Positions 31,783 through 53,063 of a stretch of DNA of 64,000 nt are shown in pieces. The notes under the pieces were generated by a model. The model was not told the origin of the DNA, did not search any database, and worked only from the letters and a program-made list of their open reading frames with translations. Location of the stretch: positions 64,001 to 128,000 of IMG/VR virus record IMGVR_UViG_3300002144_000477. One strand, written 5' to 3'. The stretch's first letter is position 1; every line of letters starts with the position of its first letter. The DNA comes from a virus. The position numbers and the translations under genes were made by a program.

Positions 31783-32097
31783 ATGAGCGAAATTAATAAA
31801 CTAGTAGAACGTGTTAAGCTGGCTACAAAATACCAGGCTAACAAACGAACATTAAAAGAAACTATTACAGCCGAGCTACATTTACCATTCAATGGCGGAT
31901 TGTTTATGCTAAGTCCGGCATTGTTGGCATTTGTTAGCACTTGGCCAGACCCAACTCTATTCATCGAAGATGCATACGAGAACCCCATTGAAGTAAATCG
32001 CGACGAGTTTTTAGTAGTTGCGAGAGAACGATATCATGCGGCTATGAACAGCTGGAATCATCAAAGCCAGGAAATTAAACGTGCCAGGAAAGTCTAA
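31783..32097 (+). CDS. Hypothetical protein (first gene of modification operon)
   Basis: ORF; start reassigned from GTG 31756, which lies inside the terminator/promoter, to ATG 31783. Confidence 0.7.
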   Translation: MSEINKLVERVKLATKYQANKRTLKETITAELHLPFNGGLFMLSPALLAFVSTWPDPTLFIEDAYENPIEVNRDEFLVVARERYHAAMNSWNHQSQEIKRARKV

Positions 32098-32845
32098 AGG
32101 CGTACTATTATTTGCGACAAATACAGCCGAAGTTGACTATGTTAGCATCGCTGAAACTAATGCAAAATTAATTGACAGATATCTCGGGTTGCCTACAACT
32201 ATTGTTCAGGGCGATGTTGGTACAAATAAACGCTTAGTAAGTGGCGCAGTAGTAGAGTGGAATAACGGTGGTAGATGCAATGCATACGAGTTAAGTCCGT
32301 ATGATCAAACGCTAGTACTCGACAGTGATTATTTAATCTTTGACAATAACTTACTAAAAGTATTAGATACTGTAGTTGATTATGCTATCCCAAACAAAAA
32401 TGTATACATTAATTCAGCAAACACCATTGACACTATGGGGCAATACAGTGTTGGACCAATGCTGTGGGCTACTGCAATTGCATTTAATCGCACTGAAAAG
32501 AGCAAGCAACTTTTTCAGCTAGTGAAAATGATACAGCATAATTACGGATACTATCGAGCACTATACAACATCTCCCCTGCAAACTTTAGAAATGATGTTG
32601 CATTTACTATTGCAGATCGAATTGTTAATGGCTATGTTGACAATATTGAAAATAGAATACCCTGGCCGGTTGTTACAGTGTCTGGAAAAGTTAGCAATCT
32701 TACATTAGATAACACTACTCGACGTATAATAGTATATACAGACACAGAGGCGTTTATTGTCCCTTGGAATAGTCTGCACCTACATGATAAAACAGTGTTG
32801 CAGTCTGATGATTTTAAAAAGGCAGTTGCACATGTCGTTGCGTAA
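32081..32845 (+). CDS. Glycosyltransferase GT-A/GT8-like protein
   Basis: GVLLFA...Y start; AYELSPYDQTLVLDSDY (DxD) motif; late NDVAF and HLHDK motifs. Confidence 0.6.
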   Translation: MPGKSKGVLLFATNTAEVDYVSIAETNAKLIDRYLGLPTTIVQGDVGTNKRLVSGAVVEWNNGGRCNAYELSPYDQTLVLDSDYLIFDNNLLKVLDTVVDYAIPNKNVYINSANTIDTMGQYSVGPMLWATAIAFNRTEKSKQLFQLVKMIQHNYGYYRALYNISPANFRNDVAFTIADRIVNGYVDNIENRIPWPVVTVSGKVSNLTLDNTTRRIIVYTDTEAFIVPWNSLHLHDKTVLQSDDFKKAVAHVVA

Positions 32846-33698
32846 ACAAGCACATCAAGCCCAGCGAGGATTTATAACATTTGCTCAAAATACTGCGTCA
32901 ACTGATTACCTTGAGCTGTCTTATCTCCAAGCGCTAAATATAAAAGCAACACAGCCTAACAGTCTATACGCGGTTATAGTTGATGTTGCTACTGAATCTC
33001 AAATAACTCCAACTCAACGCAGTGCGTTCGACTACGTTATTACCCTAGAACACGATGAAGCAACTGACTCTGAATGGAAATTGTCCAATGAGTGGCAAGT
33101 GTTTTGGTTGACCCCGTTTAAAGAAACAATTAAATTAGAATCGGATCTACTGTTTACTCGCGATGTAAGCCATTGGTGGCCAGTGTTACAAACTCAAAAT
33201 CTTGTTATGAGCCATGGTGTAGTTGATCATCAAGGTAAGCCAGCAACTAGTAGGCGATATCGTAAACTGTTTGATGAAAATAGTTTACCCGACGTATACA
33301 ACGGTATGATGTATTTTCGATTTAGTGCCGAAGCAACAACGTTTTTCTCTACTGCTAGGCAAGTTTATGCAAATTGGGATGATATCAAAAATAGCGGACT
33401 AGTTAATGTTCGGGACGATAACCCTACTACTGATGTAGTGTATGCAATAACTGCAATTCTAGTAGATTTTCCAACATATATTCCGACGCTTGATTTTTTT
33501 AAGTTTGCACATTTGAAACCCGGAATTCAAAATTGGTCCGATGATAAGTCTGTGTTTAGCCGGGTGCTGTTAGAAACAGAGATTCCGCATATTAGAATTA
33601 ATAATGTCTTGCAATTAAATCCTGTGCATTATTATGATAAAACAATTAACATTAAGGAATTAATAAATGAATACGAGCAATTTACAAGACCCGCCTGA
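32832..33698 (+). CDS. Glycosyltransferase GT-A/GT8-like protein (paralog, ESD variant motif)
   Basis: GFITFAQN..DY; LTPFKETIKLESDLL; PDVYNG; TTDVVYA; HYYDK. Collinear with the upstream gene. Start taken at ATG 32832. Confidence 0.55.
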   Translation: MSLRKQAHQAQRGFITFAQNTASTDYLELSYLQALNIKATQPNSLYAVIVDVATESQITPTQRSAFDYVITLEHDEATDSEWKLSNEWQVFWLTPFKETIKLESDLLFTRDVSHWWPVLQTQNLVMSHGVVDHQGKPATSRRYRKLFDENSLPDVYNGMMYFRFSAEATTFFSTARQVYANWDDIKNSGLVNVRDDNPTTDVVYAITAILVDFPTYIPTLDFFKFAHLKPGIQNWSDDKSVFSRVLLETEIPHIRINNVLQLNPVHYYDKTINIKELINEYEQFTRPA

Positions 33699-34044
33699 GC
33701 TAGTTACTGCAATGCAAGAGTTTTTTGCAGACAATCAACAACCTGCGGTTACATCAAAAATTGAATACCGTTTGTATTATGATGCTTTGGGCAAGGTACT
33801 GTTTATGACAACTAACGACGAGCCCGGCAAATACATTGTAATTTCAAAAGAAGTGTATAACAAACCAAATTACTCATCTATGCGTGTAGTAAATGGAGAG
33901 TTAAAAATTGTAAACTTTGATGATCCAGACTTTGCGTTAGATAAAGCAGCCACCGGATACCAAACGGTAAAAGGCCACGCAGGTATTTTAGCAGACGATC
34001 AAACAACAACTGAGACACAAACATATGGCTTCAAACATAACTGA
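33667..34044 (+). CDS. Hypothetical protein
   Basis: ORF overlapping both neighbours in the operon. Confidence 0.65.
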   Translation: MNTSNLQDPPELVTAMQEFFADNQQPAVTSKIEYRLYYDALGKVLFMTTNDEPGKYIVISKEVYNKPNYSSMRVVNGELKIVNFDDPDFALDKAATGYQTVKGHAGILADDQTTTETQTYGFKHN

Positions 34045-34936
34045 TGTTGCAGACCTTGACTGCATTTACTTAACTTACGATGAACCGCAGAAAGAAGAGT
34101 TTTGGATTAAAATCCAAAATATGGTTCCGTGGGCTAAACGAGTAGATGGAGTTAAAGGAAGCGATGCCGCACATAAGGCTGCGGCAGACGCAAGTGATAC
34201 CGAATTTTTTGTATTAATCGACGGCGACAATTTACCTGACCCGGAGTTTTTTAATTTACAAATTGAAACACCGGACCACGACTGTGCATTTCGGTGGAAA
34301 GCCCGCAATGAAATCAACGGTCTCATGTACGGCAATGGTGGTATGAGTGTGTGGAGTAAAGGCTTTGTGTACAATATGAAAACACATGAAGCTAGTGATG
34401 GCAGTGATGAAACTGCTGTTGAGTTCTGCTTCGAAGAAACATATTATCCTATGCATAACTGCTATTCAACTACATATCCAAATGGCGATCAATATCATGC
34501 ATGGCGTGCAGGATTCCGCGAAGGTGTTAAGATGTGCTTAGATAGAGGTCGTAAACCCACATTGCCGGAGTTCGACGATGCCGCCAAAAAACGTAACTTA
34601 GACCATTTACAAATTTGGCAAACAATTGGCAAAGACGTACAACACGGAGAGTGGGCAATTGCAGGCGCACGGTACGGCACGTACAAAACTATGCTAACCG
34701 ACTGGGACTACACCGAAGTTCAGGACTTTGATAAACTAAAAGAAATGTACGCAGAGTTTGACATAAACAATCTGCCTGCGATTACAGAAAAACTAACACA
34801 TCGGTTAGGACTTAATATTGTTGAACTAGATGCGGAGCAAAGTGCTTTCTTTAAGTATCATTATAGCACGGGACATAAAAATCTTGAGTTGATGACTAAA
34901 GAAATTGATGTCATTCGTAGAATTGAGGGATGGTAA
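34025..34936 (+). CDS. Glycosyltransferase GT-A-fold protein
   Basis: LDCIYLTYDEP...AAHKAAA...FVLIDGDN (DxD), NGLMYGNGG, AWRAGFREGVKM; homologous to the C-terminal domain of 48347-50965. Confidence 0.6.
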   Translation: MASNITDVADLDCIYLTYDEPQKEEFWIKIQNMVPWAKRVDGVKGSDAAHKAAADASDTEFFVLIDGDNLPDPEFFNLQIETPDHDCAFRWKARNEINGLMYGNGGMSVWSKGFVYNMKTHEASDGSDETAVEFCFEETYYPMHNCYSTTYPNGDQYHAWRAGFREGVKMCLDRGRKPTLPEFDDAAKKRNLDHLQIWQTIGKDVQHGEWAIAGARYGTYKTMLTDWDYTEVQDFDKLKEMYAEFDINNLPAITEKLTHRLGLNIVELDAEQSAFFKYHYSTGHKNLELMTKEIDVIRRIEGW

Positions 34937-34937
34937 T

Positions 34938-35225
34938 ATGATTAAACGTATTAAAGAGTTTTGGGTTAACAGTTACCACAGTGATAAAACAGCATTTTAT
35001 TACGAGCTTATTAGCTTTGTTATCACGGTAGCGGCAAGCCTGACATTAGCACTTACAGCAGACGACCCTGACATGACACTGGTTTATCCTGGGTTCTTCA
35101 TTGGCAGTGTATTTGCAGTTATTGCATATAAGCGTCGACAGCTAGTTTGGCCATTCCTATTGACATTATACTTTGCATGTGTTAATATATTTGGATACGG
35201 AGTAGCAATGAGATGGTGGAACTAA
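34938..35225 (+). CDS. Small integral membrane protein (about 3 TM)
   Basis: Three hydrophobic segments; start taken at ATG 34938 right after the upstream stop. Confidence 0.7.
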   Translation: MIKRIKEFWVNSYHSDKTAFYYELISFVITVAASLTLALTADDPDMTLVYPGFFIGSVFAVIAYKRRQLVWPFLLTLYFACVNIFGYGVAMRWWN

Positions 35226-35226
35226 T

Positions 35227-36636
35227 ATGAACAAAGGCGACGAGTCAGTAGGTAACAAGAGTAAGTTTATGGCTTCGGCTGAGTTCATGAAAGAGAACTT
35301 AGGCGAAGGACTGTGTCTGGCTAAATGGAAACAGGTAAGCCTACATCTCCCCACTGGTCTAAACAATAGTTGCTACCATCCGCCATTGCATAAAATCGAC
35401 TCAGCAACACTAAAAGACAACCCGGGCGCACTACACAACACTGAGCATAAAAAGCAACAGCGTGTTATTATGCTTAAAAACGAACGGCCCAGTGAATGTA
35501 GTTACTGCTGGAATATCGAAGACACAGGCAACCTAAGTGATAGACATTATCGTAGTGGTGAGCCCTGGGCCGCTAGCGATTACGAAACTATTGTTAGCAG
35601 TAACGGAACTGAAGACGATGTTATTCCTAGTTATGTTGAAGTAAATTTTAACCATGCGTGTAACTTAAAGTGTAGCTATTGCAGTCCGCAGTTTAGTAGC
35701 AGTTGGATGGCCGAGACTGAGAAGTACGGTGCATTTCCGACTAGCGTACCGCACAACGCACCAGAGCACTTTGCCGGTAGCAGACGCCCTATTCCGCATA
35801 GAGAAGCCAACCCCTATGTTGATGCATTCTGGGAATGGTGGCCTAGTCTTTATCCTCACTTAAAACATTTTCGCATGACAGGCGGCGAGCCGTTAATGGA
35901 TAACAATACATATAGGGTGTTTGATTATGTATTGGCGTTGCCTAACCCTGAGTTGCACTTAAATGTTACAAGTAATTTCAGTGTCGAAGACAAACTTTTC
36001 GAAAAGTATCTAGGCTATGTTAAAAAGTTATGCAAAACTCAAATAGAGCATTTTATGCAATATGTGAGTTTAGACACTGGGGTACCTGCACATGCTGAGT
36101 ACATACGCAACGGGTTAAATTGGGATCGCATGTATCACAATGTTTACCGGTATATGAATGAAGTCCCAGAGCGCAACAGTTTAACATTTATTATCACTAT
36201 GAATAATTTAAGTGTTAGTGGTATCAAGCGCCAGCTAGAGTGGATTTTAGATTTGCGAAGTAGGTTTAGTCAAACATATCAACGTGTTTGGTTTGATACT
36301 CCATTGCTTCGCCAGCCAACATGGCAAAGTTTACAAATACTACCGTGGCCCTACGCCGATAAGCTAGAGGATGTTGCTAACTGGATGGAACAACATCTAG
36401 AAACCCCAGACGATCCGTTCCATGGGTTTAAGGATTATGAAGTACAGCGTATGCGCCGTGATATTGCATGGATGCGCAAAGGTGCTGAATTAGGTGCAGA
36501 TTATTTGCAAGCACAGCGAGCAGATTTTTATAGATTTTTTAACGAACACGATAAACGCCGTGGCACTGATTTCTTAGAAACATTTCCTGATATGGAAGAG
36601 TTTTGGAAAGAGTGTAGATACCACGCTAACAGATAA
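35227..36636 (+). CDS. Radical SAM enzyme 1 with N-terminal Twitch/SPASM-like domain
   Basis: CNLKCSYC (CxxxCxxC), TGGEP; N-terminal C-x-AKW...SCYH...ECSYCW cysteine set. Confidence 0.9.
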   Translation: MNKGDESVGNKSKFMASAEFMKENLGEGLCLAKWKQVSLHLPTGLNNSCYHPPLHKIDSATLKDNPGALHNTEHKKQQRVIMLKNERPSECSYCWNIEDTGNLSDRHYRSGEPWAASDYETIVSSNGTEDDVIPSYVEVNFNHACNLKCSYCSPQFSSSWMAETEKYGAFPTSVPHNAPEHFAGSRRPIPHREANPYVDAFWEWWPSLYPHLKHFRMTGGEPLMDNNTYRVFDYVLALPNPELHLNVTSNFSVEDKLFEKYLGYVKKLCKTQIEHFMQYVSLDTGVPAHAEYIRNGLNWDRMYHNVYRYMNEVPERNSLTFIITMNNLSVSGIKRQLEWILDLRSRFSQTYQRVWFDTPLLRQPTWQSLQILPWPYADKLEDVANWMEQHLETPDDPFHGFKDYEVQRMRRDIAWMRKGAELGADYLQAQRADFYRFFNEHDKRRGTDFLETFPDMEEFWKECRYHANR

Positions 36637-36646
36637 AGAGGACAAT

Positions 36647-38002
36647 ATGCCACGTAAAGATAACGAAACACATTTAGAATACAAACGCAGAGTTATTGAC
36701 ATTAAGTCAGATTCCTTCTGTGGGGCAAAATGGTACAATGCTACTATTTGGTTAGGCAGTGGTATGACTACCAGTTGCCATCATCCATTGCCTCACAAAG
36801 TAGACGTTGAGGACGTACTTAAGAACCCTAAGGCATTACATAATACTCAAAAGAAAAAGTTTGAGCGCGAGCAGATGCAAAAAGGCGAACGACCAAAAGG
36901 TTGCGAATACTGCTGGAAGATCGAAGACATTGGACGAGACAATATTAGCGACCGGGTTTACAAATCGGTAATTTACTCCGACGAGGATCTTGCCTATGCA
37001 GCCAGAATTCCGGCCAGCACCGATATTGATCTACAGACACTCGAAATCGCATTTGACCGTACCTGCCAGTTTGCATGTAGTTATTGCAATCCGGCATTTA
37101 GTAGTACATGGGTTAAAGATATTAAAAACAACGGACCGTACAATAATCTTGTAAGCGACGGGCGTAATCACTTTACTCACATTCACGATAGTGCTCAGTT
37201 ATACAAGTATGGTGACACAAATCCATACGTGGAAGCGTTTCACCAATGGTGGGAATCCGACCTGCATAAGACATTGCAAGAACTACGAATTACAGGTGGC
37301 GAGCCATTGATGACTGGCGGTACGTGGAAACTGATCGACTGGTTTAAAGCAAACAAAGGCAAAAGTACTACCCGTTTGGCAATCAACAGTAACTTGGGTG
37401 CTGATATTGATATTGATCGATTGATTTATAGTGTCGACGGTGTAGAAATTGACTTGTACACTAGTAATGAAGCAGTCGGCGCACAAGCAGAATACATACG
37501 AGATGGATTGGATTACACTGTTTGGATGCAGAACATGGTTAAACTAATCGAAAGTAAAAAGTTTAGAGGCATTCACGTAATGTGTACTATCAATGCCTTG
37601 TGCTTAGATAGCTTGCCAGAGTTTTTAGACCAATTAGTTGAATTGAAGAAACAGTACGGCAGAGATTATCCAAACTTTACCCTAAACATTTTGCGATTCC
37701 CTAGTTTCCAAAGTGCATTGGTGTTGTCCGACGAGCAACGAACGATATATAAGAATAAGCTAATTGGTTGGATGATGCATCATCGTGACACTGAGGTATT
37801 ACATGAACATGAACGCAATCACGTAACCAGGTTAATTGACTACTTGGATGTTGTTAAGACTCCGCATAGCGAAGCATTTGAAATGCCAAAGCTACACAAC
37901 GATTTTAAAAACTTTTATCAGCAGTACGACCAGCGTAGAAAAGATAAAGATTTTAATAAAACATTCCCTAACTTATCGGATTGGTATAATGGACTCAACT
38001 AA
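36647..38002 (+). CDS. Radical SAM enzyme 2 with N-terminal Twitch/SPASM-like domain
   Basis: CQFACSYC, TGGEP; N-terminal FCGAKW...SCHH...GCEYCW. Confidence 0.9.
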   Translation: MPRKDNETHLEYKRRVIDIKSDSFCGAKWYNATIWLGSGMTTSCHHPLPHKVDVEDVLKNPKALHNTQKKKFEREQMQKGERPKGCEYCWKIEDIGRDNISDRVYKSVIYSDEDLAYAARIPASTDIDLQTLEIAFDRTCQFACSYCNPAFSSTWVKDIKNNGPYNNLVSDGRNHFTHIHDSAQLYKYGDTNPYVEAFHQWWESDLHKTLQELRITGGEPLMTGGTWKLIDWFKANKGKSTTRLAINSNLGADIDIDRLIYSVDGVEIDLYTSNEAVGAQAEYIRDGLDYTVWMQNMVKLIESKKFRGIHVMCTINALCLDSLPEFLDQLVELKKQYGRDYPNFTLNILRFPSFQSALVLSDEQRTIYKNKLIGWMMHHRDTEVLHEHERNHVTRLIDYLDVVKTPHSEAFEMPKLHNDFKNFYQQYDQRRKDKDFNKTFPNLSDWYNGLN

Positions 38003-39320
38003 AAAAGATTTCTACGAGAAGTACGATTATAATGAACGTTCTCCTCATTTTATTAAGCGTGAGGAATTAACCGATCAGCAATTTAACAGGTTAGTCAAAA
38101 GCGACAAGTTTTGTATGCTTCCTTGGGTACACATGCATGCATTTCCGGATGGCAGGGCATATCCATGTTGTTTAGGCGACTATTGGCATCCGGTTGGCGA
38201 TCTACGTAAGCACACAATGGAAGAAGTATGGAACCAGGACGCATATAAAACAATGCGTAAAAACATGCTTGAAGACAAGTCTTGTAAGGAATGCACTAAG
38301 TGCTACGAGCAAGAAGCCAATGGCTTTTTTAGTATGCGTAACGATGCGAATCGAAATTACGGACACTTGATTAACGAAGTAGATCAAACTGCTAGTGATG
38401 GCGAACATCCTGAGTTTAAATTGCGTTACTGGGATGTTCGATTTAGTAATATGTGTAACTTTAGATGCCGGTCGTGTGGCCCAATCTTTAGTAGCAATTG
38501 GTACAAGGATCATGTTAAACTATACGGTGTTAAGCCCGACGTGCTTAAGCGTGAAATGGCAGTAATCGAGTATACTACTGGCAATGAAGAAGACATGCTT
38601 AAACAGATGGAGCCGCACATCGAGCATTTAGAACAAGTCTACTTTGCTGGCGGCGAACCAATGATTATGAAAGAGCATTACTACTTACTCGAGCGCCTGA
38701 TTGATCTTGGCAAGACTGATGTGCGGTTAGTATATAATACTAACTTTAGCGAAATGCGATACAAAGATAAACACGTATTTGATTATTGGAAACATTTTAA
38801 AACTGTAAACGTTGGTGCAAGTCTTGATGGAATGGGATCACAAGGTGAGCTTATCCGCAAAGGACAAGATTGGGCACAAACAGAAGAAAACCGTATCCGT
38901 ATGAAAGAGGAAGTCCCGCACGTAGACTTCTATGTTAGTGCAACTGTTACTAGTCAGAACGTATTACATGTATTAGACTTTCATCGTGACTGGGTTGAAC
39001 GTGGCTTTATAAATCCACAAGACTTTAATGTTAATATATGTCAGAGCCCTGAATGGTATCGCATTGATATCTTTCCGGAGCAGTTTAAGCGTGAAGTAAT
39101 TGAACCTGCGTATCGCAAGCATATCGAGTGGTTGGACCCACAAGACAAGTTGCGTCGTGCTACAACAGGATTCGAAAGTGCTATTAATTTTATGATGAGC
39201 AACGACGGGTCCAAGTACTGGAACCGATTCGAGCACGAAATCAAACTACTCGATGATCTACGTAACGAAGACTTTTGGGCTACATTCCCTGAATTAGAGG
39301 CAGCACGTGGAAAACAATAA
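37989..39320 (+). CDS. Radical SAM enzyme 3 with N-terminal Twitch/SPASM-like domain
   Basis: CNFRCRSC, AGGEP; FCMLPW...DGRAYPCC...ECTKCY. Start reassigned to ATG 37989. Confidence 0.9.
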   Translation: MDSTKKDFYEKYDYNERSPHFIKREELTDQQFNRLVKSDKFCMLPWVHMHAFPDGRAYPCCLGDYWHPVGDLRKHTMEEVWNQDAYKTMRKNMLEDKSCKECTKCYEQEANGFFSMRNDANRNYGHLINEVDQTASDGEHPEFKLRYWDVRFSNMCNFRCRSCGPIFSSNWYKDHVKLYGVKPDVLKREMAVIEYTTGNEEDMLKQMEPHIEHLEQVYFAGGEPMIMKEHYYLLERLIDLGKTDVRLVYNTNFSEMRYKDKHVFDYWKHFKTVNVGASLDGMGSQGELIRKGQDWAQTEENRIRMKEEVPHVDFYVSATVTSQNVLHVLDFHRDWVERGFINPQDFNVNICQSPEWYRIDIFPEQFKREVIEPAYRKHIEWLDPQDKLRRATTGFESAINFMMSNDGSKYWNRFEHEIKLLDDLRNEDFWATFPELEAARGKQ

Positions 39321-40518: not shown

Positions 40519-40526
40519 TTTTTAAT

Positions 40527-42013: not shown

Positions 42014-42019
42014 GAATAC

Positions 42020-43853: not shown

Positions 43854-43941
43854 AAACATAATCAATCGAATCAAACTCGAAATTCAATATCGTAAGAAAC
43901 TAAAAGAGTTAAGAAAACGTGATCCTTTTATTTACAAATGA
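43840..43941 (+). CDS. 33-aa basic micro-protein (MQWIKNIINRIKLEIQYRKKLKELRKRDPFIYK), below the ORF-track cutoff
   Basis: Fills the gap exactly: overlaps the upstream stop and is ATGA-coupled to 43938. Confidence 0.65.
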   Translation: MQWIKNIINRIKLEIQYRKKLKELRKRDPFIYK

Positions 43942-44639: not shown

Positions 44640-46104
44640 CGCCGCAGTCACGTTAATTAACGATCAGGGCGATATCCTGTTTGCAAGCTCAAGCGAAAGA
44701 TACAGCGGAATAAAAAACGATCCTAAGTTAGCAAGAGATATGCTAGCTGAAATTGATCTCTCGGAAGTACACAACGTTGCGTATTACGAAAACCCGCTGC
44801 AAAAGCAATTACGACAATTGTACGCAGGTCAATGTGTAGAGTTAAACAAACTAACTACTCGGCAGGTCCTTCGCTCAGTTGGATATCCTGCTAAAACCGG
44901 TTTGTTTGGCACTAGGTGTAACGTAAAGTCGTATCCTCATCATATGAGCCATGCTGCTGCCGGGTTTCAAACTAGCCCGTACGATGACGCTACGGTGTTA
45001 GTAGTGGATGCAATCGGTGAATGGAATACCGCAACTATATGGGATGCCCGGTACGATAGCGAGGGCAAAGCAGTATACAAAAAGTTATGGAGCCAATCGT
45101 ATCCGCATAGTATCGGATTATTCTACAGTGCATTTACTAAGCACATCAATCTTAAACCTCTAGACGAAGAATACATTTTCATGGGCATGGCAGCGTGGGG
45201 AGAAAATCGCTGGTTTGATCGTATCTATACTGACTTCATTGAGAATTCGAGCGAATTAACATTTAAGAAAAATTTACATATTGGTATAGATCCAAATTAC
45301 TTACCCGACGCTCTTAATGTTGATATTGCCGCTAGTGTGCAAAGCATCACGGAACATCTATTAGATCGATTAGTAAATAAAGCAAAGCACATGAATACAA
45401 GTAAGAATCTTGTATTCATGGGGGGAGTCGCATTAAATTGTGTTGCCAATGCAAACATCGGAGCGCATTACGAGAATATTTGGATTATGCCAAATCCGGG
45501 CGATGCCGGTAGTAGCTTAGGTGCCGCCGCACTGATGTACGGAAAAAAACTGAACTGGGATGGGCCATTTCTTGGTTATAATATTCCGGGCGAGTACCCA
45601 GTTAACCAAATGGTTGATCAGCTATTAGCAAATCAAATCGTTGGAGTTGCTACTGGTCGCGCAGAGTTTGGGCCTAGAGCGTTAGGACACCGCAGTCTGC
45701 TTGCTGATCCACGCGGCTCAGAAATTAAAGATAGAGTAAACGAAATTAAACGTCGACAAAAGTTTAGACCATTTGCTCCAATGATTTTAGAAGAAATGGC
45801 AGACCAATATTTTAACATGCCGAAAAATTGGAAAGCCAGCCCATATATGCAAACTGTTGCAGTAGTTAAAGACCCATCACAGTTTCCAGCTATATGCCAT
45901 ATCGACAATACTGCACGAGTACAAACAGTAGGCCGTGAACCTCAGTTTGCTGGAGTAAGAGAACTACTCGAAAAATGGTTCGTGTTAACTGGATGCCCGA
46001 TGCTGCTAAATACTTCGCTTAATATCAGGGGAGAGCCCATGGTTAATACTCGCTCGGATGCTGATAGATTCGAGGATCAATACGGTATAACAGTAATATC
46101 ATGA
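44605..46104 (+). CDS. Carbamoyltransferase, NodU/CmcH/TobZ family
   Basis: GFHDAA, ERYS, HHMSHAA, VDAIGE, GGVALNC, PGDAG, EFGPRALG, FRPFAP and LLNTSLN motifs (Kae1-like plus YrdC-like domains). Confidence 0.92.
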   Translation: MNILGIAAGFHDAAVTLINDQGDILFASSSERYSGIKNDPKLARDMLAEIDLSEVHNVAYYENPLQKQLRQLYAGQCVELNKLTTRQVLRSVGYPAKTGLFGTRCNVKSYPHHMSHAAAGFQTSPYDDATVLVVDAIGEWNTATIWDARYDSEGKAVYKKLWSQSYPHSIGLFYSAFTKHINLKPLDEEYIFMGMAAWGENRWFDRIYTDFIENSSELTFKKNLHIGIDPNYLPDALNVDIAASVQSITEHLLDRLVNKAKHMNTSKNLVFMGGVALNCVANANIGAHYENIWIMPNPGDAGSSLGAAALMYGKKLNWDGPFLGYNIPGEYPVNQMVDQLLANQIVGVATGRAEFGPRALGHRSLLADPRGSEIKDRVNEIKRRQKFRPFAPMILEEMADQYFNMPKNWKASPYMQTVAVVKDPSQFPAICHIDNTARVQTVGREPQFAGVRELLEKWFVLTGCPMLLNTSLNIRGEPMVNTRSDADRFEDQYGITVIS

Positions 46105-46529
46105 AAATTTTAATATTTGGATTGCCAGGAAGCGGCAAGAGTACACTAGCAGAACCGTTTGCTAAATTAGTAGGCGGCATATGGCTTAATGCAGATGCAG
46201 TGCGTAAAGAATATGACGACTGGGACTTTACCCCCGAAGGTCGCATGAGGCAAGCACAGCGTATGAAATTTTTAGCAGATGGTGTAGTTAAAGCAGGCAA
46301 AGTTGCAATCGCAGACTTTGTTTGTCCCACTGTACAAGCTCGGGAGGAGTTTGGCGCAGACTTTGTTGTCTGGATGGATACTATCAAAGAGGGTAGATTC
46401 GAAGACACTAACAAGATGTTTCAAACACCTGCACATTATGACTATCACGTAAGTGCATGGTTTGATGATACGCATGAACAACTGGCAAAAGTAGTTTCGA
46501 AATATATGAAAGCTCAAAATGGAAAATGA
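46101..46529 (+). CDS. Adenylyl-sulfate-kinase-like P-loop kinase
   Basis: GLPGSGKST Walker A, LNADAVRK, DFTPEGRMRQ, ADFVCP. Confidence 0.7.
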   Translation: MKILIFGLPGSGKSTLAEPFAKLVGGIWLNADAVRKEYDDWDFTPEGRMRQAQRMKFLADGVVKAGKVAIADFVCPTVQAREEFGADFVVWMDTIKEGRFEDTNKMFQTPAHYDYHVSAWFDDTHEQLAKVVSKYMKAQNGK

Positions 46530-46743
46530 AAAAGTATCACCAAAACGCCACTTAGCCAAAGCGGTTACCTGGAGAATTGCTGCCAGCACAATAACAGCAC
46601 TAATCGCTTTTGGTTTCGGTTTGCCAGCATCTGCAATAGGCGGCGTGTTCTTTGTTGACTTGGTACTGAAGTTTGTGTTATACTATTACCATGAACGCTT
46701 ATGGTATAAGCACATAACTTACGGAGTTAAAAAAGATGTTTGA
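46519..46743 (+). CDS. DUF2061-like small membrane protein
   Basis: RHLAKAVTWRI...LYYYHERLW pattern; two hydrophobic helices. Confidence 0.75.
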   Translation: MENEKVSPKRHLAKAVTWRIAASTITALIAFGFGLPASAIGGVFFVDLVLKFVLYYYHERLWYKHITYGVKKDV

Positions 46744-47146
46744 TAATCAACACCCCACAACACAGATGCTGGGAAGGTGGCAACCCTGGCATCCTGGACA
46801 TACCGCATTGTTTAAAAAAGCACTGATGGAAACTGGACAAGTTTGTATTCAGATTAGAGATGTTGGAGGCATTGTTGGCGCAGATGCAGGCGCAGGAAGA
46901 ACTGCTACACAAGCTGACAATCCTTTTAACTTTACCGAAGTTAAGAACAATATCATACAGGCATTGTTTGAAGAAGGTTTTACCTACAATGAGGAATACA
47001 TTATTATGCAAGTTCCTAATATTGTAGACATCAGCTATGGTCGTGGTGTAGGATATACATTTACACAGCACGACCTAGGTGAAGAAATACATGCTATCAG
47101 TGCAACTGAAATCAGAGCTAAGTTGCGAGCAGATGGAAAACTATGA
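46736..47146 (+). CDS. HxGH-family nucleotidyltransferase (cytidyltransferase-like)
   Basis: LGRWQPWHPGH motif, DNPF, C-terminal ISATEIR. Confidence 0.75.
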   Translation: MFDNQHPTTQMLGRWQPWHPGHTALFKKALMETGQVCIQIRDVGGIVGADAGAGRTATQADNPFNFTEVKNNIIQALFEEGFTYNEEYIIMQVPNIVDISYGRGVGYTFTQHDLGEEIHAISATEIRAKLRADGKL

Positions 47147-47262
47147 TTTTAGATTTAGCAGTAGGTATCGCACATTCACTATTTTGGTTCGCAGTAGTAA
47201 TGCTAGAGCTGTTTGTTATTATACAAACATTGAAGTGGTTAACAGGCGATAAGTTAAACTAG
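47143..47262 (+). CDS. 39-aa hydrophobic peptide (MILDLAVGIAHSLFWFAVVMLELFVIIQTLKWLTGDKLN), below the ORF-track cutoff
   Basis: ATGA-coupled to the upstream gene, single TM, ends overlapping the convergent gene. Confidence 0.5.
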   Translation: MILDLAVGIAHSLFWFAVVMLELFVIIQTLKWLTGDKLN

Positions 47263-48348
47263 TAAATTATCTGTAAGCTCTTGCCATGCGCTGTCTAGGA
47301 ACGAAGATTGCTCAAACCATTTACGGTTATGAGTCAGCACTGGTTCCATTTGTTTAAGTAGTACTTCTAACTCGCTATTGCTACGAACACATAATTTAGC
47401 AATAGCATCATTTAATACTAGTATACGCTGTATTGGATCTTCAATGTCATCGTAGCTTTCGTCAATCCAGTCACTGAATGTTAAAAATCCATACGACCGT
47501 AGATACTTTAGGCTGTGTGCAGGACCTAATAACACAAATGGCATTTCACTAATTATAGGCTTAAACACTTTTTCAGTTAAGTGCTCTTTGCTACTCCAGA
47601 ATTCAGTTTCAGTGACAACAAACAGAAACGATTCCATGCATTGATCCACTGCACTTAATACCATACTGCCGTTTGGTATATGGTCCGACGAACTAGTATC
47701 AACTCGCAGTTCGGGTAACCCAGCAAGCTCATCGATTGCCCATTGTAGGTCTAGACCCTTTGTGCGTTCTGCCCATTGTAGTTGTTCAATATTGTTACCG
47801 TGCTCTGGACAGTCAACACTATAGCTAACGTGTCCTTGTTCTAATAGATTTCGACGCTTTAAGTCAGCTACTGCAATACTACGATAGCACCTTGCATTTC
47901 CAGTAATTCGGTTAAAGCTAATAAACTTTTTGTTGACTTTACGGTCGGATGGCTGTATAATATGAGGACTGTACCGGTAGCCACGGAACCAGTCGTGTGC
48001 GGCAAATATATGGTAGAAATAGTAACAATCGTCGAACTGGAATTTGTCTAAAAAATATTTTTTAGACTCACTCTGGCGTTCGGTGTTAAGTAGTATTATG
48101 CGCCTGTTGTCTGTACCAAAAGTGTTTTTAACATGGTTAAACAGTGCATCGTTGTACCCAGGTATAAGCGGTTCTTGATCATAACAAAACAATACTGGTC
48201 CTTCATCGTCGCCACCGGAGTTTAACATTTCTAGACTGTCGATACTGCTTGCACCAAAAGGAAAAGGATAAATGACCATAACCCCATTGGGCCACTTGTT
48301 GCAGGCCATGCGGAAAATGTTTTCATAATGCGAATGGATATTATACAT
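47254..48348 (-). CDS. Putative GT-B glycosyltransferase (GT10/fucosyltransferase-like motif)
   Basis: FVVTETE...HLTEKVFKPI...PFVLLG...LRSYGF resembles the GT10 E...TEK...P nucleotide-sugar-binding motif. Confidence 0.5.
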   Translation of the reverse strand: MYNIHSHYENIFRMACNKWPNGVMVIYPFPFGASSIDSLEMLNSGGDDEGPVLFCYDQEPLIPGYNDALFNHVKNTFGTDNRRIILLNTERQSESKKYFLDKFQFDDCYYFYHIFAAHDWFRGYRYSPHIIQPSDRKVNKKFISFNRITGNARCYRSIAVADLKRRNLLEQGHVSYSVDCPEHGNNIEQLQWAERTKGLDLQWAIDELAGLPELRVDTSSSDHIPNGSMVLSAVDQCMESFLFVVTETEFWSSKEHLTEKVFKPIISEMPFVLLGPAHSLKYLRSYGFLTFSDWIDESYDDIEDPIQRILVLNDAIAKLCVRSNSELEVLLKQMEPVLTHNRKWFEQSSFLDSAWQELTDNLLV

Positions 48349-50965
48349 GTTTGATGTTTTCTACTTTGGGCCTAAGCCAAATTTATTTGCGTTTGAACGC
48401 CCTGCAAGTTCTCTTCAGGAAGCATTGCACAAGTCAAGGACTCGTTACTGTTGGTATTTATACGGCGGCAACGACTATACTGACTTTAATTTTAATATTG
48501 TGCCCGAACCATGGATGTCGCAGTTTGTACATACATGGCCTAGTCAGTGGCAAGCCGACGGTGGGGTGTACTTAGCAAGCAAGCATATTGTAGGTACACA
48601 GTATCATTTTCGTGCTGACCAAACAGTAGTTCGGATGAGTGATCCGACTAAGTGGGAAAACACTAGCAATGTCACTGACTTTGATTATAGTTGGCATCCA
48701 AGCGTACACGAACCAGATTACGAATATCATTTCCCTACACAGCACCAAAGCGCAGGCGGCCCAATCTATCCGGGTACAGCAGGCATTAAGTTGTGCAGTG
48801 ACCAACGAGCAACAGTAGGTAGCACCACCAAAAATTGGCACATACCAACTGGCATGACAGTTGATACTAGTTGGCACCCTAATCCGTTGGATCCAAGTTA
48901 CACTTATCACTTTCCCACTAAGTGGCAGAGTGCCGGCGGAGTAATGTACATTTCGACGCACTCTAGTACAACTGCTATTAAGTTTGCAGATTTTGTAACT
49001 AGCGAAGAGCCTAGCAACGAGAATTGGACGGTACCAGACGACATTGACGAGTCCACCATTGACTTTACCTGGCGCCCAAATGTATTAGACCCTTCTTACA
49101 TTTACCATTTCCCCATTGGTGATATACAAAGTTCTGGATTAGTCTATACAGCACCTGGCGCAACAGAAGTTAAACTGATGGATTACTTCCCTGGGCATGA
49201 TATAGGCACGTTTAAAGAAGTTGATGTGTTTTACGTAGACAAAAGCAACACTTTATCACAAGCAAGGTACAAAAAACTACTAAAAACTTACCCTAAAATG
49301 CAACGAATTCGGTATGCTAACAGTATGCTGGAAACTATACGTCGATGCGTTAATAGGTCTAGTACTACGCGATTCTGGGTTATCAGCAGTGAAAATGTCT
49401 ACGATGACTTTCAGTTTGATTGGCGCCCCGAGAGCTGGCAAAGTTATATGACTCATGTGTTTGGGTCGCAATGGAATAAGTGGTCCGATACTTTCTTAAT
49501 TAATAAATGGGAATTTGAACGTTCAAGTAAGTGGGCAACCGGTTTAGAACATTTTCCTAATCTAAACTTTGTAACGGATCAGCAGGTGCTAGTGCCCGAC
49601 GACCTACATGCAATAGTTTATGTAGATTGGGGGTATGATGACAACAATCAGTTTGCTAGCTTACAAACTGCTCACCCTAATATACAAAAGACAAGATTTG
49701 TTGACAACTATCTAGATACATTCAAGCGGATTATTAATAACCATCAAGGTCACGACTACATCTGGGTTATTAGCAGCCTCTGTGACTACAGTAAATTTGA
49801 CTTTAGTTGGCAACCCGAGCCGTGGCAGGCCGAGATGATACATGTGTTTCCTAGTAGCACACAGCGCCGAGGTGACACCTTTTACATCCACGTGCCAAGT
49901 TTTGCAAAACAAATGCACGATCTAGAAATACTAGATTGGTTTAATGTTATTAACTATTGTAACGAACAACAGGTGTCCCGTTGGCCTGTTAACATTGTAA
50001 CATACAATGGAGACAGTGCAGTTGATGTTGTTAACACTTTAGAGTTTAGTACCGGGCCATACGAATTAGTAATGCACCATACTACTCCGGAGCGGAATGC
50101 TATCAACTGGGCAACAACTCCTTGCTTATGGAGATCGAAAGATCGCATGGCAATAAGTTTGTCTACCAACAATGCAACAGTGCTAGTTCCACGAGATATA
50201 AAGTTACAGCAACCTATTAAACAGATTTATGATTACCCATTTGTTAGTAAAACGGAATCGAGAACAGTAGTAGCACCCCCATTGGATATTGTATATATTA
50301 GTAACGGCGAACCCGATGCTGAACGCTGGTATGAACATCTAAAGTATCAAGTGCCTAACTACAGTAACAAATTACATCGTGTAAAAAACATCAATGGCAG
50401 AATGGAAGCATACAAAGCGGCTGCAGAAGCAAGTACAACTGAATGGTTCTTTGCTGTATTTGCAAAACTTCAAGTAAGCGACACATTCGACTTTACATGG
50501 CAGCCTGACTACTTCCAGGAAGCAAAGCATTACATATTTCATGCACGTAACCCAGTTAACGGATTAGAGTATGGGCATCAAGCAATGATTGCATATAACA
50601 AAAGATTAGTACTTGAAACAATGAACAGCGGGCTGGACTTTACACTAACTAAAGCGCACGAAGTAGTTCCTATACTAAGTGGTACAGCACACTTTAATCA
50701 AGACGAATGGACTACTTGGCGTACTGCATTCCGTGAAGTGCTTAAGCTAAAACAGTTCCACGACACTAAGCCCAGCATAGAGAACGAAAGTCGTCTTAAT
50801 GTATGGCTTACAAAAGGAGCAGATGTAGAAAATGGAAAGTGGAGCATCCTTGGTGCAAAGGATGCTCTTGACTATTATGCTAGCGTTAACGGAAATCCAG
50901 AAATGCTACAGTTGAGCTTTGAATGGGAATGGTTAAGAAATAAGTTCAATGAACTGGCTAGCTAA
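48347..50965 (+). CDS. Multi-repeat GT-A-like protein (872 aa)
   Basis: Several internal GT-A-like modules and FD(Y/F)(S/T)W.P repeats; C-terminal LDIVYISNGEP...NGLEYG...WRTAFREVLKL domain paralogous to 34025. Confidence 0.6.
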   Translation: MFDVFYFGPKPNLFAFERPASSLQEALHKSRTRYCWYLYGGNDYTDFNFNIVPEPWMSQFVHTWPSQWQADGGVYLASKHIVGTQYHFRADQTVVRMSDPTKWENTSNVTDFDYSWHPSVHEPDYEYHFPTQHQSAGGPIYPGTAGIKLCSDQRATVGSTTKNWHIPTGMTVDTSWHPNPLDPSYTYHFPTKWQSAGGVMYISTHSSTTAIKFADFVTSEEPSNENWTVPDDIDESTIDFTWRPNVLDPSYIYHFPIGDIQSSGLVYTAPGATEVKLMDYFPGHDIGTFKEVDVFYVDKSNTLSQARYKKLLKTYPKMQRIRYANSMLETIRRCVNRSSTTRFWVISSENVYDDFQFDWRPESWQSYMTHVFGSQWNKWSDTFLINKWEFERSSKWATGLEHFPNLNFVTDQQVLVPDDLHAIVYVDWGYDDNNQFASLQTAHPNIQKTRFVDNYLDTFKRIINNHQGHDYIWVISSLCDYSKFDFSWQPEPWQAEMIHVFPSSTQRRGDTFYIHVPSFAKQMHDLEILDWFNVINYCNEQQVSRWPVNIVTYNGDSAVDVVNTLEFSTGPYELVMHHTTPERNAINWATTPCLWRSKDRMAISLSTNNATVLVPRDIKLQQPIKQIYDYPFVSKTESRTVVAPPLDIVYISNGEPDAERWYEHLKYQVPNYSNKLHRVKNINGRMEAYKAAAEASTTEWFFAVFAKLQVSDTFDFTWQPDYFQEAKHYIFHARNPVNGLEYGHQAMIAYNKRLVLETMNSGLDFTLTKAHEVVPILSGTAHFNQDEWTTWRTAFREVLKLKQFHDTKPSIENESRLNVWLTKGADVENGKWSILGAKDALDYYASVNGNPEMLQLSFEWEWLRNKFNELAS

Positions 50966-50971
50966 GTGTTA

Positions 50972-52114
50972 TCATTTAAAAAACTCTATTACACTATTTA
51001 CAATATACTCAACTTCGGGATCTGTTAGCTCGGGATATATAGGCAAACTCAATGTTTGTTGGCATAAGTTGCGCCCTGCTTCGCTAGCAAATCCATCGTA
51101 GTCTGCGTACTCCGGATTAAAGATGTTAGATGCCGCTGACGAATACAATGGGTAATCGGCCAGCGGAGTAGTGTAATGAACTTTAGTCTCGATGCCCTGC
51201 TCTTTCAAGTGGTCAGCTAAACTATCTCTGTGAAACAAAAATATCGGAAACTTGTGCCATGCACATGTAACATTATCTTCAATTTCAAGTACACGCACGT
51301 ACGGTCTTAGTCTTTCTTGAAAGTATTTAGCAATTTCAGTTCTACGGGCTTGCCACGCATCGAAGTGATGTAGTTTAACTAACAACGATGCCGCATCAAG
51401 TTCGCTTAGTTTACTATTAGTTCCGCTTAGAACATGCCTTGATGTTTTACCGTTATCGCGTAACGACATAGCATTTAAGAACACTTCTTCGTTGTCGGTT
51501 AATAGCATTCCGCCTGACCCGTAGTTGTTTAAGTTCTTCATTGGATCAAAACTTAAACAACTAACATCGCCGAAGCTACCGCTTGGCATATCGTTGTAGG
51601 ATGCACCTAAACTTTGTGCGGCATCTTCGATAATCGGCAAAGAATCAATGTTACCAAAAAATTTAGTTAGCAGGTTTATCTTATCGTAGTCTACCATGTT
51701 ACCGTACAGGTTAACGGGCATTAGTGCATTAGTTTGGTATACGCCCAATTGGTCGGGCAAACTAGCTAAATCCATTAGCCCATGCAAGTCGGTGTCTACA
51801 ATATACGGTTTATGCCCTGTTTCGTATACGCAGTTAAGTGTAGCAACGAAGCTAACCGCAGGCACCATTATCCTGCTTTTATAAGGTAGTTTAAGGGCTC
51901 TTATTGCAAAAATAAGAGCCTGTGTGCCACTGTTTACAGCTACGGCATACTTACGCTTACAACGGAATGCTAATGCTTCTTCAAGCATTAAAGTGTAGGC
52001 ACCATCTAAGTGCCTACCCGAACTCCAAACTTGATCTGCTGTTTCTAGCAGTTCACTTCGTAAGTTTTTGTATTGCCTTTTGGTTCCAGTAAACGCTATT
52101 AGAGAGCCATTCAT
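50972..52114 (-). CDS. DegT/DnrJ/EryC1/StrS PLP-dependent sugar aminotransferase
   Basis: AVAVNSGTQAL, IEDAAQS, SFDPMKNL (PLP lysine), GSGG, SLPIYP. Start taken at ATG 52114. Confidence 0.92.
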   Translation of the reverse strand: MNGSLIAFTGTKRQYKNLRSELLETADQVWSSGRHLDGAYTLMLEEALAFRCKRKYAVAVNSGTQALIFAIRALKLPYKSRIMVPAVSFVATLNCVYETGHKPYIVDTDLHGLMDLASLPDQLGVYQTNALMPVNLYGNMVDYDKINLLTKFFGNIDSLPIIEDAAQSLGASYNDMPSGSFGDVSCLSFDPMKNLNNYGSGGMLLTDNEEVFLNAMSLRDNGKTSRHVLSGTNSKLSELDAASLLVKLHHFDAWQARRTEIAKYFQERLRPYVRVLEIEDNVTCAWHKFPIFLFHRDSLADHLKEQGIETKVHYTTPLADYPLYSSAASNIFNPEYADYDGFASEAGRNLCQQTLSLPIYPELTDPEVEYIVNSVIEFFK

Positions 52115-53063
52115 ATTGTTTTGCGAATCCTTCTTCAATGTCTACTTTAGGGTCAAATCCAAAATCTTCTTTTGCACGAGTAATATCTAATGCACCGCGA
52201 CTTGGGAAATCTGCATGTTTTTCTTTTACAGTAACAGCACCCTTGCCAACTAGTGTAATTGCTAAGTTTGCGGCTTCGAGCAATGTTTTACTATGACTCT
52301 TAGTAATGTTGTAGGTCTTGTTGACAGCATTTGGGCTTAGTCCTGCAAGGACCATACCTTCAGCGGCATCTTCAACAAAGGTGAAATCTAGTGTTTCATT
52401 TTCTCCGTTGACAGTAAGTTCGCTATTGCCCATTGCAGTAAGCAGAAACTTGCTAATAACACGGTCACTGACATCAAGCGGTCCGTATACGGCACTCGGG
52501 CGAATGATAGTATACTCTAGGCCATATTTGCGACAGTAGTCTTTAACTAGCATCTCGCCCGTTAGTTTAAGGATGCCGTACTCGCCTTGCGGGTTTAGAT
52601 CTGCATCTTCGTTGACATGGTCGTCAAAGTCACCGTAGACCATGCTACTACTGATATAGACAAAACGTTTAACCTCATACTTAACAGACATTTCTAACAA
52701 GTTAAGTAGTCCACCAATCATAGTGTTACTTGAACCACCGGGGTCTGCACCTACTACTTTTTGCCTAGGAGGACTAGCCAGGTGAAATACAATGTCTGGG
52801 CGCATGAATGCCATAGAGCTATCAACAAACTTTTTGTCAACAATGTCTTTATGTAGGTAGTTGGTGCTAACTAGATTAGGCGGCAATGACATGATAACTT
52901 TCATACGTTCGCCCAACAGGTACCCAACTTCTTTCATGCTGACAGCACCGTTGTAGTTAGTAAGGTTATCGTAAATACTAACGGGAATTTGATGGTCGTT
53001 AACTAATTTCTGTACCACGTGGTGACCAATTAATCCTAGTCCACCAGTAACAAGTGCTTTCAT
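52053..53063 (-). CDS. NAD-dependent NDP-sugar epimerase/dehydratase (extended SDR)
   Basis: TGGLGLIG, SSSMVYG, YGILK (YxxxK), RPSAVYGP, DFTFVED. Start may be 53078. Confidence 0.92.
   Translation of the reverse strand: MKALVTGGLGLIGHHVVQKLVNDHQIPVSIYDNLTNYNGAVSMKEVGYLLGERMKVIMSLPPNLVSTNYLHKDIVDKKFVDSSMAFMRPDIVFHLASPPRQKVVGADPGGSSNTMIGGLLNLLEMSVKYEVKRFVYISSSMVYGDFDDHVNEDADLNPQGEYGILKLTGEMLVKDYCRKYGLEYTIIRPSAVYGPLDVSDRVISKFLLTAMGNSELTVNGENETLDFTFVEDAAEGMVLAGLSPNAVNKTYNITKSHSKTLLEAANLAITLVGKGAVTVKEKHADFPSRGALDITRAKEDFGFDPKVDIEEGFAKQYEWLSNSVYWNQKAIQKLTK

Follow-up and report, generated by a model that had tools for sequence, protein, structure and literature searches.

A conserved island of radical SAM and glycosyltransferase-like genes beside the tail fibre genes of a jumbo phage

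Comparison with described systems

Giant viruses and mycobacteriophages are known to encode glycosylation systems of their own. In the glycosylation of the fibrils and capsids of Mimivirus and PBCV-1, and in that of mycobacteriophage virions as far as it is represented by the citation of Freeman et al. 2023 in PMC12619734, viral glycosyltransferase (GT) genes are located beside structural genes, and the viruses possess a 4,6-dehydratase and aminotransferase route of their own to amino-dideoxy sugars. Both traits recur in the gene island described here, which extends from 31783 to 53078 of a 64,000-nucleotide stretch of virus DNA (the window, to which positions refer unless stated otherwise), comprising bases 64001-128000 of the 170,893-bp virus record IMGVR_UViG_3300002144_000477. 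This island combines candidate GTs with five radical S-adenosylmethionine (SAM) enzymes, two SGNH-like proteins, a carbamoyltransferase and enzymes of nucleotide-sugar synthesis. To our knowledge, neither a radical SAM array nor an SGNH pair nor a carbamoyltransferase is known from the glycosylation of mycobacteriophages, Mimivirus or PBCV-1, and among the systems described so far none joins glycosyltransferases with an ordered set of five to eight radical SAM enzymes. Unlike the mycobacteriophage and giant virus systems, the island is known from its genes alone, and it is headed by a sigma70-like promoter of its own. A description of such a cassette was not found in the literature searched.

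The locus resembles the BtrN/BtrR type of aminoglycoside biosynthesis in that radical SAM enzymes with a twitch-type auxiliary cluster and a DegT aminotransferase occur together. However, BtrN carries its twitch domain at the C-terminus and was not among the sequence matches of the radical SAM proteins studied here; membership in this group is therefore unsupported. The 5-hydroxymethylcytosine (5hmC) pathway described by MetaGPA (PMC8670742) shares with our record the presence of a phage carbamoyltransferase of the NodU/TobZ family and a thymidylate synthase (TS) family gene on the same contig. The 5hmC carbamoyltransferases co-occur with TS homologs bearing Asp177 (PMC8670742), whereas the TS of this phage exhibits Asn177 and His147 and is accompanied by dihydrofolate reductase (DHFR), and its carbamoyltransferase stands among SGNH-like and GT genes, as on the unmodified contigs of that study (PMC8670742).

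Conservation of the island in related phages

The initial annotation of the window, made from the sequence alone, had proposed a glycan-building and tailoring island directly behind the tail fibre genes. Its gene content and coordinates held in the open reading frame (ORF) map and in the Pfam, NCBIfam and PHROG scans (Table 1). A scan of IMG/VR with the fourth radical SAM protein (rSAM4) yielded 25 loci, onto which all island proteins were then mapped. The order fibre gene, small protein, two GT-A genes, GT2-like gene and rSAM1 to rSAM5 was held in all 22 loci spanning the upstream side, at identities of 30-85%. Since this order is conserved at such identities in 25 loci, the island is far beyond chance, and the co-conservation expected from the initial annotation was confirmed by this synteny check.

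The block encoding the SGNH-like proteins, the carbamoyltransferase and the kinase, as well as the gene 47254-48348, are accessory and absent from the loci L017, L019 and L020. Some relatives carry six to eight genes for radical SAM proteins with N-terminal twitch domain (N-twitch). At L025, the most distant locus, homologs of the short-chain dehydrogenase/reductase (SDR) and the DegT aminotransferase flank a single N-twitch radical SAM gene.

Homologs of the island proteins number thousands in metagenomes, on contigs of up to about 366 kb. The completeness of the present record was estimated by CheckV at about 49%, implying a genome near 350 kb, and we conclude that the clade consists of widespread jumbo myophages of about 350 kb. 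When the entire island was compared by megablast with 50,697 phage records, no match was obtained.

Table 1. Features of the island and its upstream border in the window
Feature	Position	Strand	Basis or remark
Intrinsic-terminator hairpin, 12-bp stem and T-run	31738-31776	+	3' of last fibre gene; overlaps island promoter
Sigma70-like promoter TTGCAA-17-TATAAT	overlapping the hairpin 31738-31776	+	heads island; -10 box ends 6 nt 5' of ATG 31783
First island gene, small soluble protein, no family match	31783-32097	+	in 20 loci and RsoM2USA ORF354
Predicted retaining GT8-like GT-A glycosyltransferase, invariant DxD	32081-32845	+	predicted fold and motif
GT-A paralog of 32081-32845, ExD (E97, D99) replacing DxD	32832-33698	+	hhalign
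Small soluble protein, no family match, variably conserved	33667-34044	+	in about half of loci
GT2-like candidate glycosyltransferase, DGD motif	34025-34936	+	motif and weak Pfam match
Small membrane protein, three hydrophobic segments	34908-35225	+	hydropathy scan; weak DUF6542 match
rSAM1, N-twitch, SC(Y/H)HP subtype	35227-36636	+	NF033640 311.8 bits; RsoM2USA ORF349 ortholog 34%
rSAM2, N-twitch	36647-38002	+	NF033640 277.2 bits; RsoM2USA ORF202 ortholog 52%
rSAM3, N-twitch, CC subtype	37986-39320	+	NF033640 395 bits
rSAM4, N-twitch	39307-40518	+	NF033640 364.6 bits
rSAM5, N-twitch	40527-41825	+	NF033640 294 bits
63-aa protein, one hydrophobic segment, poorly conserved	41822-42013	+	hydropathy scan
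Phage-specific protein, predicted beta-barrel with four-helix insertion	42020-43087	+	predicted structure
SGNH-like protein, GGDSF..G.EL	43065-43853	+	RsoM2USA ORF201 and ORF203 homologs
SGNH-like protein (DUF6071 / GDSL_2), invariant Ser block and C-terminal His	43938-44639	+	motif
NodU/TobZ-type carbamoyltransferase	44605-46104	+	Pfam; RsoM2USA ORF199 44% identical
P-loop kinase-like protein (N-terminus like adenosine phosphosulfate kinase), DUF2061 membrane protein and HxGH nucleotidyltransferase-like protein, three short coupled genes	46101-47146	+	weak matches
Candidate transferase, GT10-like TET..HLTEK motif	47254-48348	-	motif
872-aa multi-module protein	48347-50965	+	blastp, alignment, repeat inspection
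DegT-family pyridoxal phosphate (PLP) aminotransferase	50972-52138	-	best match PseC, below equivalog cut-off
Extended SDR, nucleoside diphosphate (NDP)-sugar 4,6-dehydratase-like	52053-53078	-	best matches dTDP-glucose 4,6-dehydratase and LegB, below cut-offs

Three further observations were made in relatives. In L004 (1106-1360), likewise in L005 to L008 and in L002 (940-1164), a gene for an 84-aa acyl carrier protein with a DSLD phosphopantetheine site separates the first gene of the island from the promoter that heads it. The acyl carrier protein gene, which this genome lacks, hints at an acyl group as part of the product in those relatives. A 2.5-kb contig binned in a Polynucleobacter metagenome-assembled genome (MAG; L034, CAYVBV010000193.1) encodes an rSAM3 ortholog with 72% identity and is probably phage DNA in the bin; together with the Ralstonia host of the phage RsoM2USA it hints at hosts among the Burkholderiales. 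The 255-kb Vibrio phage K566 (L038) possesses five N-twitch-like radical SAM genes (161548-168284 and 177860-178915), four of them in one cluster, interleaved with hypothetical genes without detectable kinship to the other genes of the island.

The core of the island in the cultured phage RsoM2USA

Among the 50,697 phage records, the Ralstonia jumbo phage RsoM2USA (MG752970) alone encodes a homolog of the GT2-like protein 34025-34936. Two blocks of related genes were found there. The first comprises, in the same order as here, ORF355 (homolog of the fibre protein), ORF354, the GT-A pair ORF353 and ORF352, ORF350 (GT2-like), ORF349 (rSAM1) and ORF348 (a second GT2-like protein), and lies directly 3' of the tail sheath gene and other structural genes confirmed by mass spectrometry. 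In the second block, ORF203, ORF201 and ORF200 (SGNH-like) surround ORF202 (rSAM2) and are followed by ORF199 (carbamoyltransferase). The blocks lie about 90 kb apart, indicating that the island was built of at least two ancient sub-modules. ORF348 to ORF355 and ORF199 to ORF203 are all annotated as hypothetical. In contrast to the five N-twitch radical SAM genes here, RsoM2USA has just two, and no homolog of the barrel protein 42020-43087 was seen in the two regions examined.

RsoM2USA furthermore carries a second, divergent gene of the TS family (ORF10; L060, 7607-8443; 85 bits), whose best published match is a protein of Xanthomonas phage Xp15, as well as an NTP pyrophosphatase gene. The pyrimidines of this phage may be modified.

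The radical SAM array and its partner protein

All five radical SAM enzymes of the initial annotation were recovered as full-length members of NCBIfam family NF033640 (N_Twi_rSAM, twitch domain-containing radical SAM protein), with 277-395 bits against a cut-off of 170. They match the family from end to end: the four cysteines of the N-terminal twitch (C30, C49, C91, C94), the following CxxxCxxC motif (C145, C149, C152) and the GGEP motif (G219-P222) are invariant in all five. Pfam SPASM matches are likewise located at the N-terminus in rSAM3, rSAM4 and rSAM5. With this architecture, the BtrN-like enzymes that the initial annotation had assumed were not found, which reduces the proposed oxidation of the product to a guess.

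The five proteins are pairwise just 22-31% identical, indicating ancient duplications. In 77 protein clusters a single fusion protein of about 840 aa unites rSAM3 with rSAM4, and more than 7,900 homologs of rSAM4 (E <= 1e-10) were found in metagenomes. Seven N-twitch radical SAM genes are present in the whole record, one of them ahead of the window (record 57460-58710, minus strand). The nearest solved relatives of the family are BlsE (the best), viperin and MoaA, each at E about 1e-4, and weak NCBIfam matches point to sactipeptide, ranthipeptide and cyclophane maturases. We know of no assayed member of NF033640, and a paper on the N-terminal twitch radical SAM family was not found in the literature searched. 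Compared with the family as defined, the phage members are set apart by ordered arrays of five to eight ancient paralogs, by fusions of paralogs and by a dedicated partner protein.

This probable partner is the barrel protein 42020-43087, which comes after the radical SAM array in 16 of 18 loci. Its family comprises 619 representatives, one of which (P0444) fuses the domain to an N-twitch radical SAM protein (profile E 1e-74). A Foldseek search of the model against the PDB gave nothing at E <= 1e-3, and the ESM Atlas no usable match. Seven members (P0380, P0385, P0390, P0391, P0394, P0414, P0425) have an extra N-terminal domain of about 400 aa; in the 712-775-aa fusions P0380 and P0414 it showed no PDB sequence match and no match to the GT or radical SAM profiles of the island.

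Outside phages, an Elusimicrobia MAG encodes an N-twitch radical SAM protein fused to Sel1 repeats and flanked by three GDSL/SGNH proteins, another radical SAM protein, a GT2 and a GT4. At a second locus, a GDSL-TPR protein is again nearby. The gene neighbourhoods of the sole Bacteroidia locus, L035, and of locus L052 contributed no information. The association of radical SAM, SGNH and GT genes therefore recurs in cells as well as in phages.

Glycosyltransferase candidates

For none of the proposed GT genes of this genome was a match to GT families obtained in Pfam, NCBIfam or PHROG. We therefore tested the candidates one by one with family alignments built from the related loci. Of the at least five GT-fold genes initially proposed, the GT-A gene 32081-32845 and its paralog held and the GT2-like gene 34025-34936 is probable; of the other two, one encodes a probably non-catalytic relative and one a candidate transferase, so that the number of GTs is lower than proposed.

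The model of the 32081-32845 protein predicts a confident GT-A Rossmann-like fold across the whole protein, and D81 and D83 are invariant in 14 sequences of the family. Among its best structural matches are glycogenin, Skp1 alpha-GalT, UGGT and GlyE, which are protein-directed cytoplasmic enzymes of the GT8 type; Foldseek matches also include Mimivirus R699, and the lipopolysaccharide (LPS) enzyme LgtC is among the GT8-like folds. Membership in Glyco_transf_8/GT8 was not supported by any Pfam, NCBIfam or PHROG match, and the family profile had no PDB sequence match. Because the fold is shared but membership by sequence profile is lacking, the protein is, as far as the model can be relied upon, a member of a new family sharing with GT8 only the fold. 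The adjacent gene encodes a paralog (hhalign 99%, E 4e-18, 239 columns), and the small soluble protein starting the island invariably sits just 5' of this pair.

In the family of the GT2-like candidate 34025-34936, 5 of 18 members show sub-threshold matches to Glyco_tranf_2_3 (best E 0.004), and with its DGD motif the protein is probably a GT2-like enzyme. The last module of the 872-aa protein 48347-50965 is homologous to it (blastp E 1e-20) with loss of the DxD. The large protein contains four degenerate copies of a GT2-like half-domain and short DFxWxP..HxF repeats and is, judging from these features, probably a non-catalytic multi-module relative.

In the protein 47254-48348 a TEK aligns with the GT10 motif, and the nearest named clusters in the ESM Atlas are Glyco_transf_10, with a score of just 0.80. 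An hhalign comparison with six GT10 proteins from Bacteroidota and Elusimicrobia genomes reached E 0.06, no better than controls, and a Pfam scan of seven family members gave no match. More than 6,300 homologs, every one unnamed, were retrieved by a profile search of 5.8 billion proteins. From these comparisons it remains a candidate transferase whose GT10 membership is not significant. PDB sequence searches with the family profiles A1, A3, A4 and A5 returned chance matches alone.

Sugar-tailoring genes and nucleotide-sugar supply

The two SGNH-like proteins were borne out by weak database matches (Pfam DUF6071 2.5e-7, Lipase_GDSL_2 4.5e-5) and an invariant G(D)SF..G.EL serine block. In the carbamoyltransferase both domains, Carbam_trans_N (136.7 bits) and Carbam_trans_C (172.4 bits), exceed the Pfam cut-off (E 8e-51 and 2e-39 for the two domains), and against the NodU equivalog it scored 141 bits where 1000 are needed. 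The kinase/nucleotidyltransferase pair is present on the strength of weak matches to a P-loop kinase and an HxGH nucleotidyltransferase, in a group of genes variable among relatives. Three small membrane proteins were found in a hydropathy scan, in line with the several announced.

The DegT aminotransferase and the SDR are well supported (Pfam E 2e-73 and E 5e-40). An SDR and a DegT protein of this type are the usual pair for the synthesis of NDP-4-amino-4,6-dideoxyhexose. No sugar-1-phosphate nucleotidyltransferase was found in the 170,893-bp record, suggesting host NDP-sugars as the likely input.

Thus, the prediction of an oxidised, aminated, carbamoylated and possibly sulfated glycan held in part. 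A sugar-handling island with GT-A enzymes, an NDP-sugar dehydratase/aminotransferase pair and an O-carbamoyltransferase remains, whereas sulfation is unsupported: the P-loop match covers 80 residues, and Pfam and NCBIfam scans revealed no sulfotransferase. All in all, the earlier observation was largely right and its general interpretation reasonable, but the specific chemistry (BtrN-like oxidation, sulfation) is unsupported. The present analysis adds to this a handle in a cultured phage, the two-module structure, the gene fusions, a predicted fold for the partner protein, two transcription signals (promoter and terminator) and a test for 5hmC carbamoylation.

A second neighbourhood of sugar genes was observed at record 127637-145808 (window 63637 onward, mostly past the window end). 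It contains a paralog of 47254-48348 (record 127637-128473, plus strand) and, on the minus strand, an SGNH-like fragment (133799-133969), an N-twitch radical SAM gene (138546-139544), an SDR gene (144505-145068) and a gene matching Pfam Glycos_transf_1 (145347-145808).

Genomic setting and transcription of the island

Upstream of the island, genes for a baseplate hub/lysozyme and a gp6-like baseplate wedge (PHROG 10646, 1025 bits) are followed by genes for several fibre proteins with collagen-like and IMC-chaperone domains and by a fibre gene at 30781-31710, so that the location directly behind the tail fibre genes is correct. The baseplate wedge gene is separated from the fibre genes by a single ORF of 4382 aa (11008-24156). 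Downstream, a canonical thymidylate synthase and DHFR are encoded on the opposite strand.

The genes from 31783 to 47146 are tightly coupled as initially described, with an overlap or a gap of at most 10 nt at all junctions except one. The sole longer gap in this plus-strand run (84 nt, within 43840-43941) contains a 33-codon ORF ending in ..KRDPFIYK. The first island gene starts at ATG 31783; the alternative GTG 31756 falls within the terminator hairpin, which makes ATG 31783 the true start. The hairpin and a better promoter (TTGACA-17-TATACT) are kept in the close relatives L001, L002 and L004, and terminator hairpins were also found in the more distant loci L009, L010, L014 and L016. The island is thus a transcription unit of its own, separate from the fibre operon, and judging from the promoter sequence it is probably transcribed by the host RNA polymerase.

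An early-type promoter at 47933-47961 (plus strand) serves the gene 48347-50965 and closely resembles the repeated minus-strand early promoters of the phage at 57588-62009. The start codons of this gene and of 47254-48348 overlap head to head by 2 nt (48346-48348), an arrangement kept in L001, L004 and L014, which requires each promoter to lie within the opposite gene. The T4-type late promoter TATAAATA was considered and rejected, as its one copy in 64 kb (48455-48462, minus strand) is below chance and the element is not enriched.

Proposed function and alternatives

We propose that the island directs the synthesis and chemical modification of a sugar-based decoration within the host cytoplasm, most likely on the adjacent fibre protein or proteins, i.e. 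that it serves virion glycosylation. We give this explanation about an even chance, the virion acceptor being its least certain step. In this scheme, the SDR and DegT proteins would convert host NDP-hexose to NDP-4-amino-4,6-dideoxyhexose, and the GT-A pair and the GT2-like enzyme would attach sugars to a soluble acceptor. Each radical SAM enzyme, in complex with the barrel protein, might perform a different oxygen-independent C-H chemistry (oxidation, epimerisation or deoxygenation) on the sugar or sugar nucleotide. The SGNH-like proteins and the carbamoyltransferase would add or trim O-acyl and O-carbamoyl groups, and the sugar acceptor would be the adjacent fibre protein or proteins. That the N-terminal twitch enzymes form a new glycan-editing class, complexed with the barrel, each paralog carrying out a different oxygen-independent C-H functionalisation on fibre-attached sugars, is a tentative and rather doubtful extension of this proposal.

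A virion target is favoured because two distant phage groups both keep the genes at a fixed place next to one fibre gene, because protein-directed enzymes are among the best structural matches of the GT-A model, and because precedents exist, among them a report of at least two glycoproteins in virions of the related jumbo phage XacN1 (PMC5852040). Furthermore, all island enzymes are soluble, no island protein of more than 110 aa has a hydrophobic segment, and Pfam matches of the island proteins include no polyprenyl-phosphate GT, flippase/transporter or polymerase. This makes a self-sufficient pathway for a surface polysaccharide unlikely, although host machinery might be used.

Several points weigh against virion glycosylation. 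XacN1, the phage with reported glycoproteins, does not carry this module (tblastn). The conserved terminator and sigma70-like promoter set the island apart from the fibre operon, so that adjacency does not equal co-transcription, and the sigma70-like and early-type promoters suggest that the island may be expressed early rather than late. A separate transcription unit weakens the argument from co-expression but not that from the conserved position. Moreover, three of the five GT calls are without fold evidence. Members of NF033640 have no known substrate and resemble the nearest solved enzymes at E about 1e-4 only, and most SPASM/twitch enzymes are peptide maturases.

Alternatively, the enzymes might remodel the host envelope by modifying lipid-linked intermediates of LPS, capsule or exopolysaccharide (EPS) at the inner membrane face, with the host flippase and ligase being used. 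The altered cell surface could then cause superinfection exclusion or mask receptors from released progeny. O-antigen and EPS tailoring typically involves such a set of aminosugar, O-carbamoyl and SGNH genes. The Elusimicrobia context exhibits TPR/Sel1-SGNH fusions like EPS systems, and promoters of the sigma70 type point to transcription by host RNA polymerase in its unmodified form. LgtC among the GT8-like folds and the three small membrane proteins within the island would fit as well, and T4-like cyanophages carry LPS-like gene clusters. We nevertheless regard this explanation as unlikely: the island contains no initiating polyprenyl-phosphate transferase, flippase, polymerase or ligase, and envelope remodelling would leave unexplained why two distant phage groups both keep the genes strictly next to one fibre gene.

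A hypermodification of DNA, in which the transferases, carbamoyltransferase, kinase, PLP enzyme and radical SAM enzymes would decorate hydroxymethyl-pyrimidines to evade restriction, appears distinctly unlikely. In its favour, thymidine hypermodification pathways employ a P-loop kinase, PLP enzymes and a radical SAM enzyme. Phage GTs are known to glycosylate DNA, thyA and DHFR adjoin the island, a phage carbamoyltransferase converts 5hmC to 5-carbamoyloxymethylcytosine (PMC8670742), and RsoM2USA has the divergent ORF10 and the NTP pyrophosphatase mentioned above. However, the sole TS-family gene in the 171-kb record, about 49% complete, is canonical (354.8 against the NF002497 cut-off of 327), with His147 and Asn177 (PPCH...PFNIAS) and DHFR alongside, and the relatives G004 and G005, whose records are incomplete, likewise have a canonical TS. 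This counts against 5hmC carbamoylation, which we rejected for the record at this completeness in view of Asn177 in place of Asp177, and lowers the DNA explanation as a whole. The MetaGPA carbamoyltransferases flanked by GTs also were on unmodified contigs (PMC8670742), and no TET/JBP match was found, although this is a weak test, as the control search gave no match anywhere.

The radical SAM array might instead modify a protein by epimerisation or by C-C/C-O cross-links in a fibre or another phage protein, the barrel presenting the peptide and the GTs glycosylating the same protein. The prevalence of peptide maturases among characterised SPASM/twitch enzymes, the weak NCBIfam matches to such maturases, the Sel1/TPR fusions in Elusimicrobia and the adjoining fibre gene all speak for it. 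We consider it improbable, as general Pfam and NCBIfam scans, made without a dedicated precursor search, revealed no precursor peptide, RRE domain, protease or exporter, and as the radical SAM gene of L025 lies between SDR and DegT homologs. The three adjacent fibre proteins are devoid of cysteine, which excludes Cys-derived thioether links for them. Small ORFs of the island are poorly conserved across the loci.

Very improbable, finally, is a diffusible aminoglycoside-like or nucleoside-sugar metabolite acting on the host or competitors: DegT, TobZ-type carbamoyltransferase and twitch radical SAM enzymes do match the tailoring of aminoglycoside and nucleoside antibiotics, BlsE is the best solved match of the radical SAM proteins and in L002 and L004 to L008 the island opens with a gene for an acyl carrier protein, but no exporter or self-resistance gene was recognised, and a polymer or protein acceptor accords better with the three to five transferase-like proteins and with the constant location at a fibre gene.

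Biological significance

The phages carrying the island are abundant: homologs of its proteins number more than 6,000 to 7,900, on contigs of up to about 366 kb. If the radical SAM enzymes did edit fibre-attached sugars as a new enzyme class, jumbo phages would bear a chemically unprecedented virion glycan, shaping host recognition or shielding the fibres. The core genes in the cultured phage RsoM2USA turn the location of the product and the chemistry of the radical SAM enzymes into a question for the bench. The answer would give a function to the large orphan enzyme family NF033640 and could reveal a new anaerobic sugar chemistry as well as a new layer of phage-host recognition.

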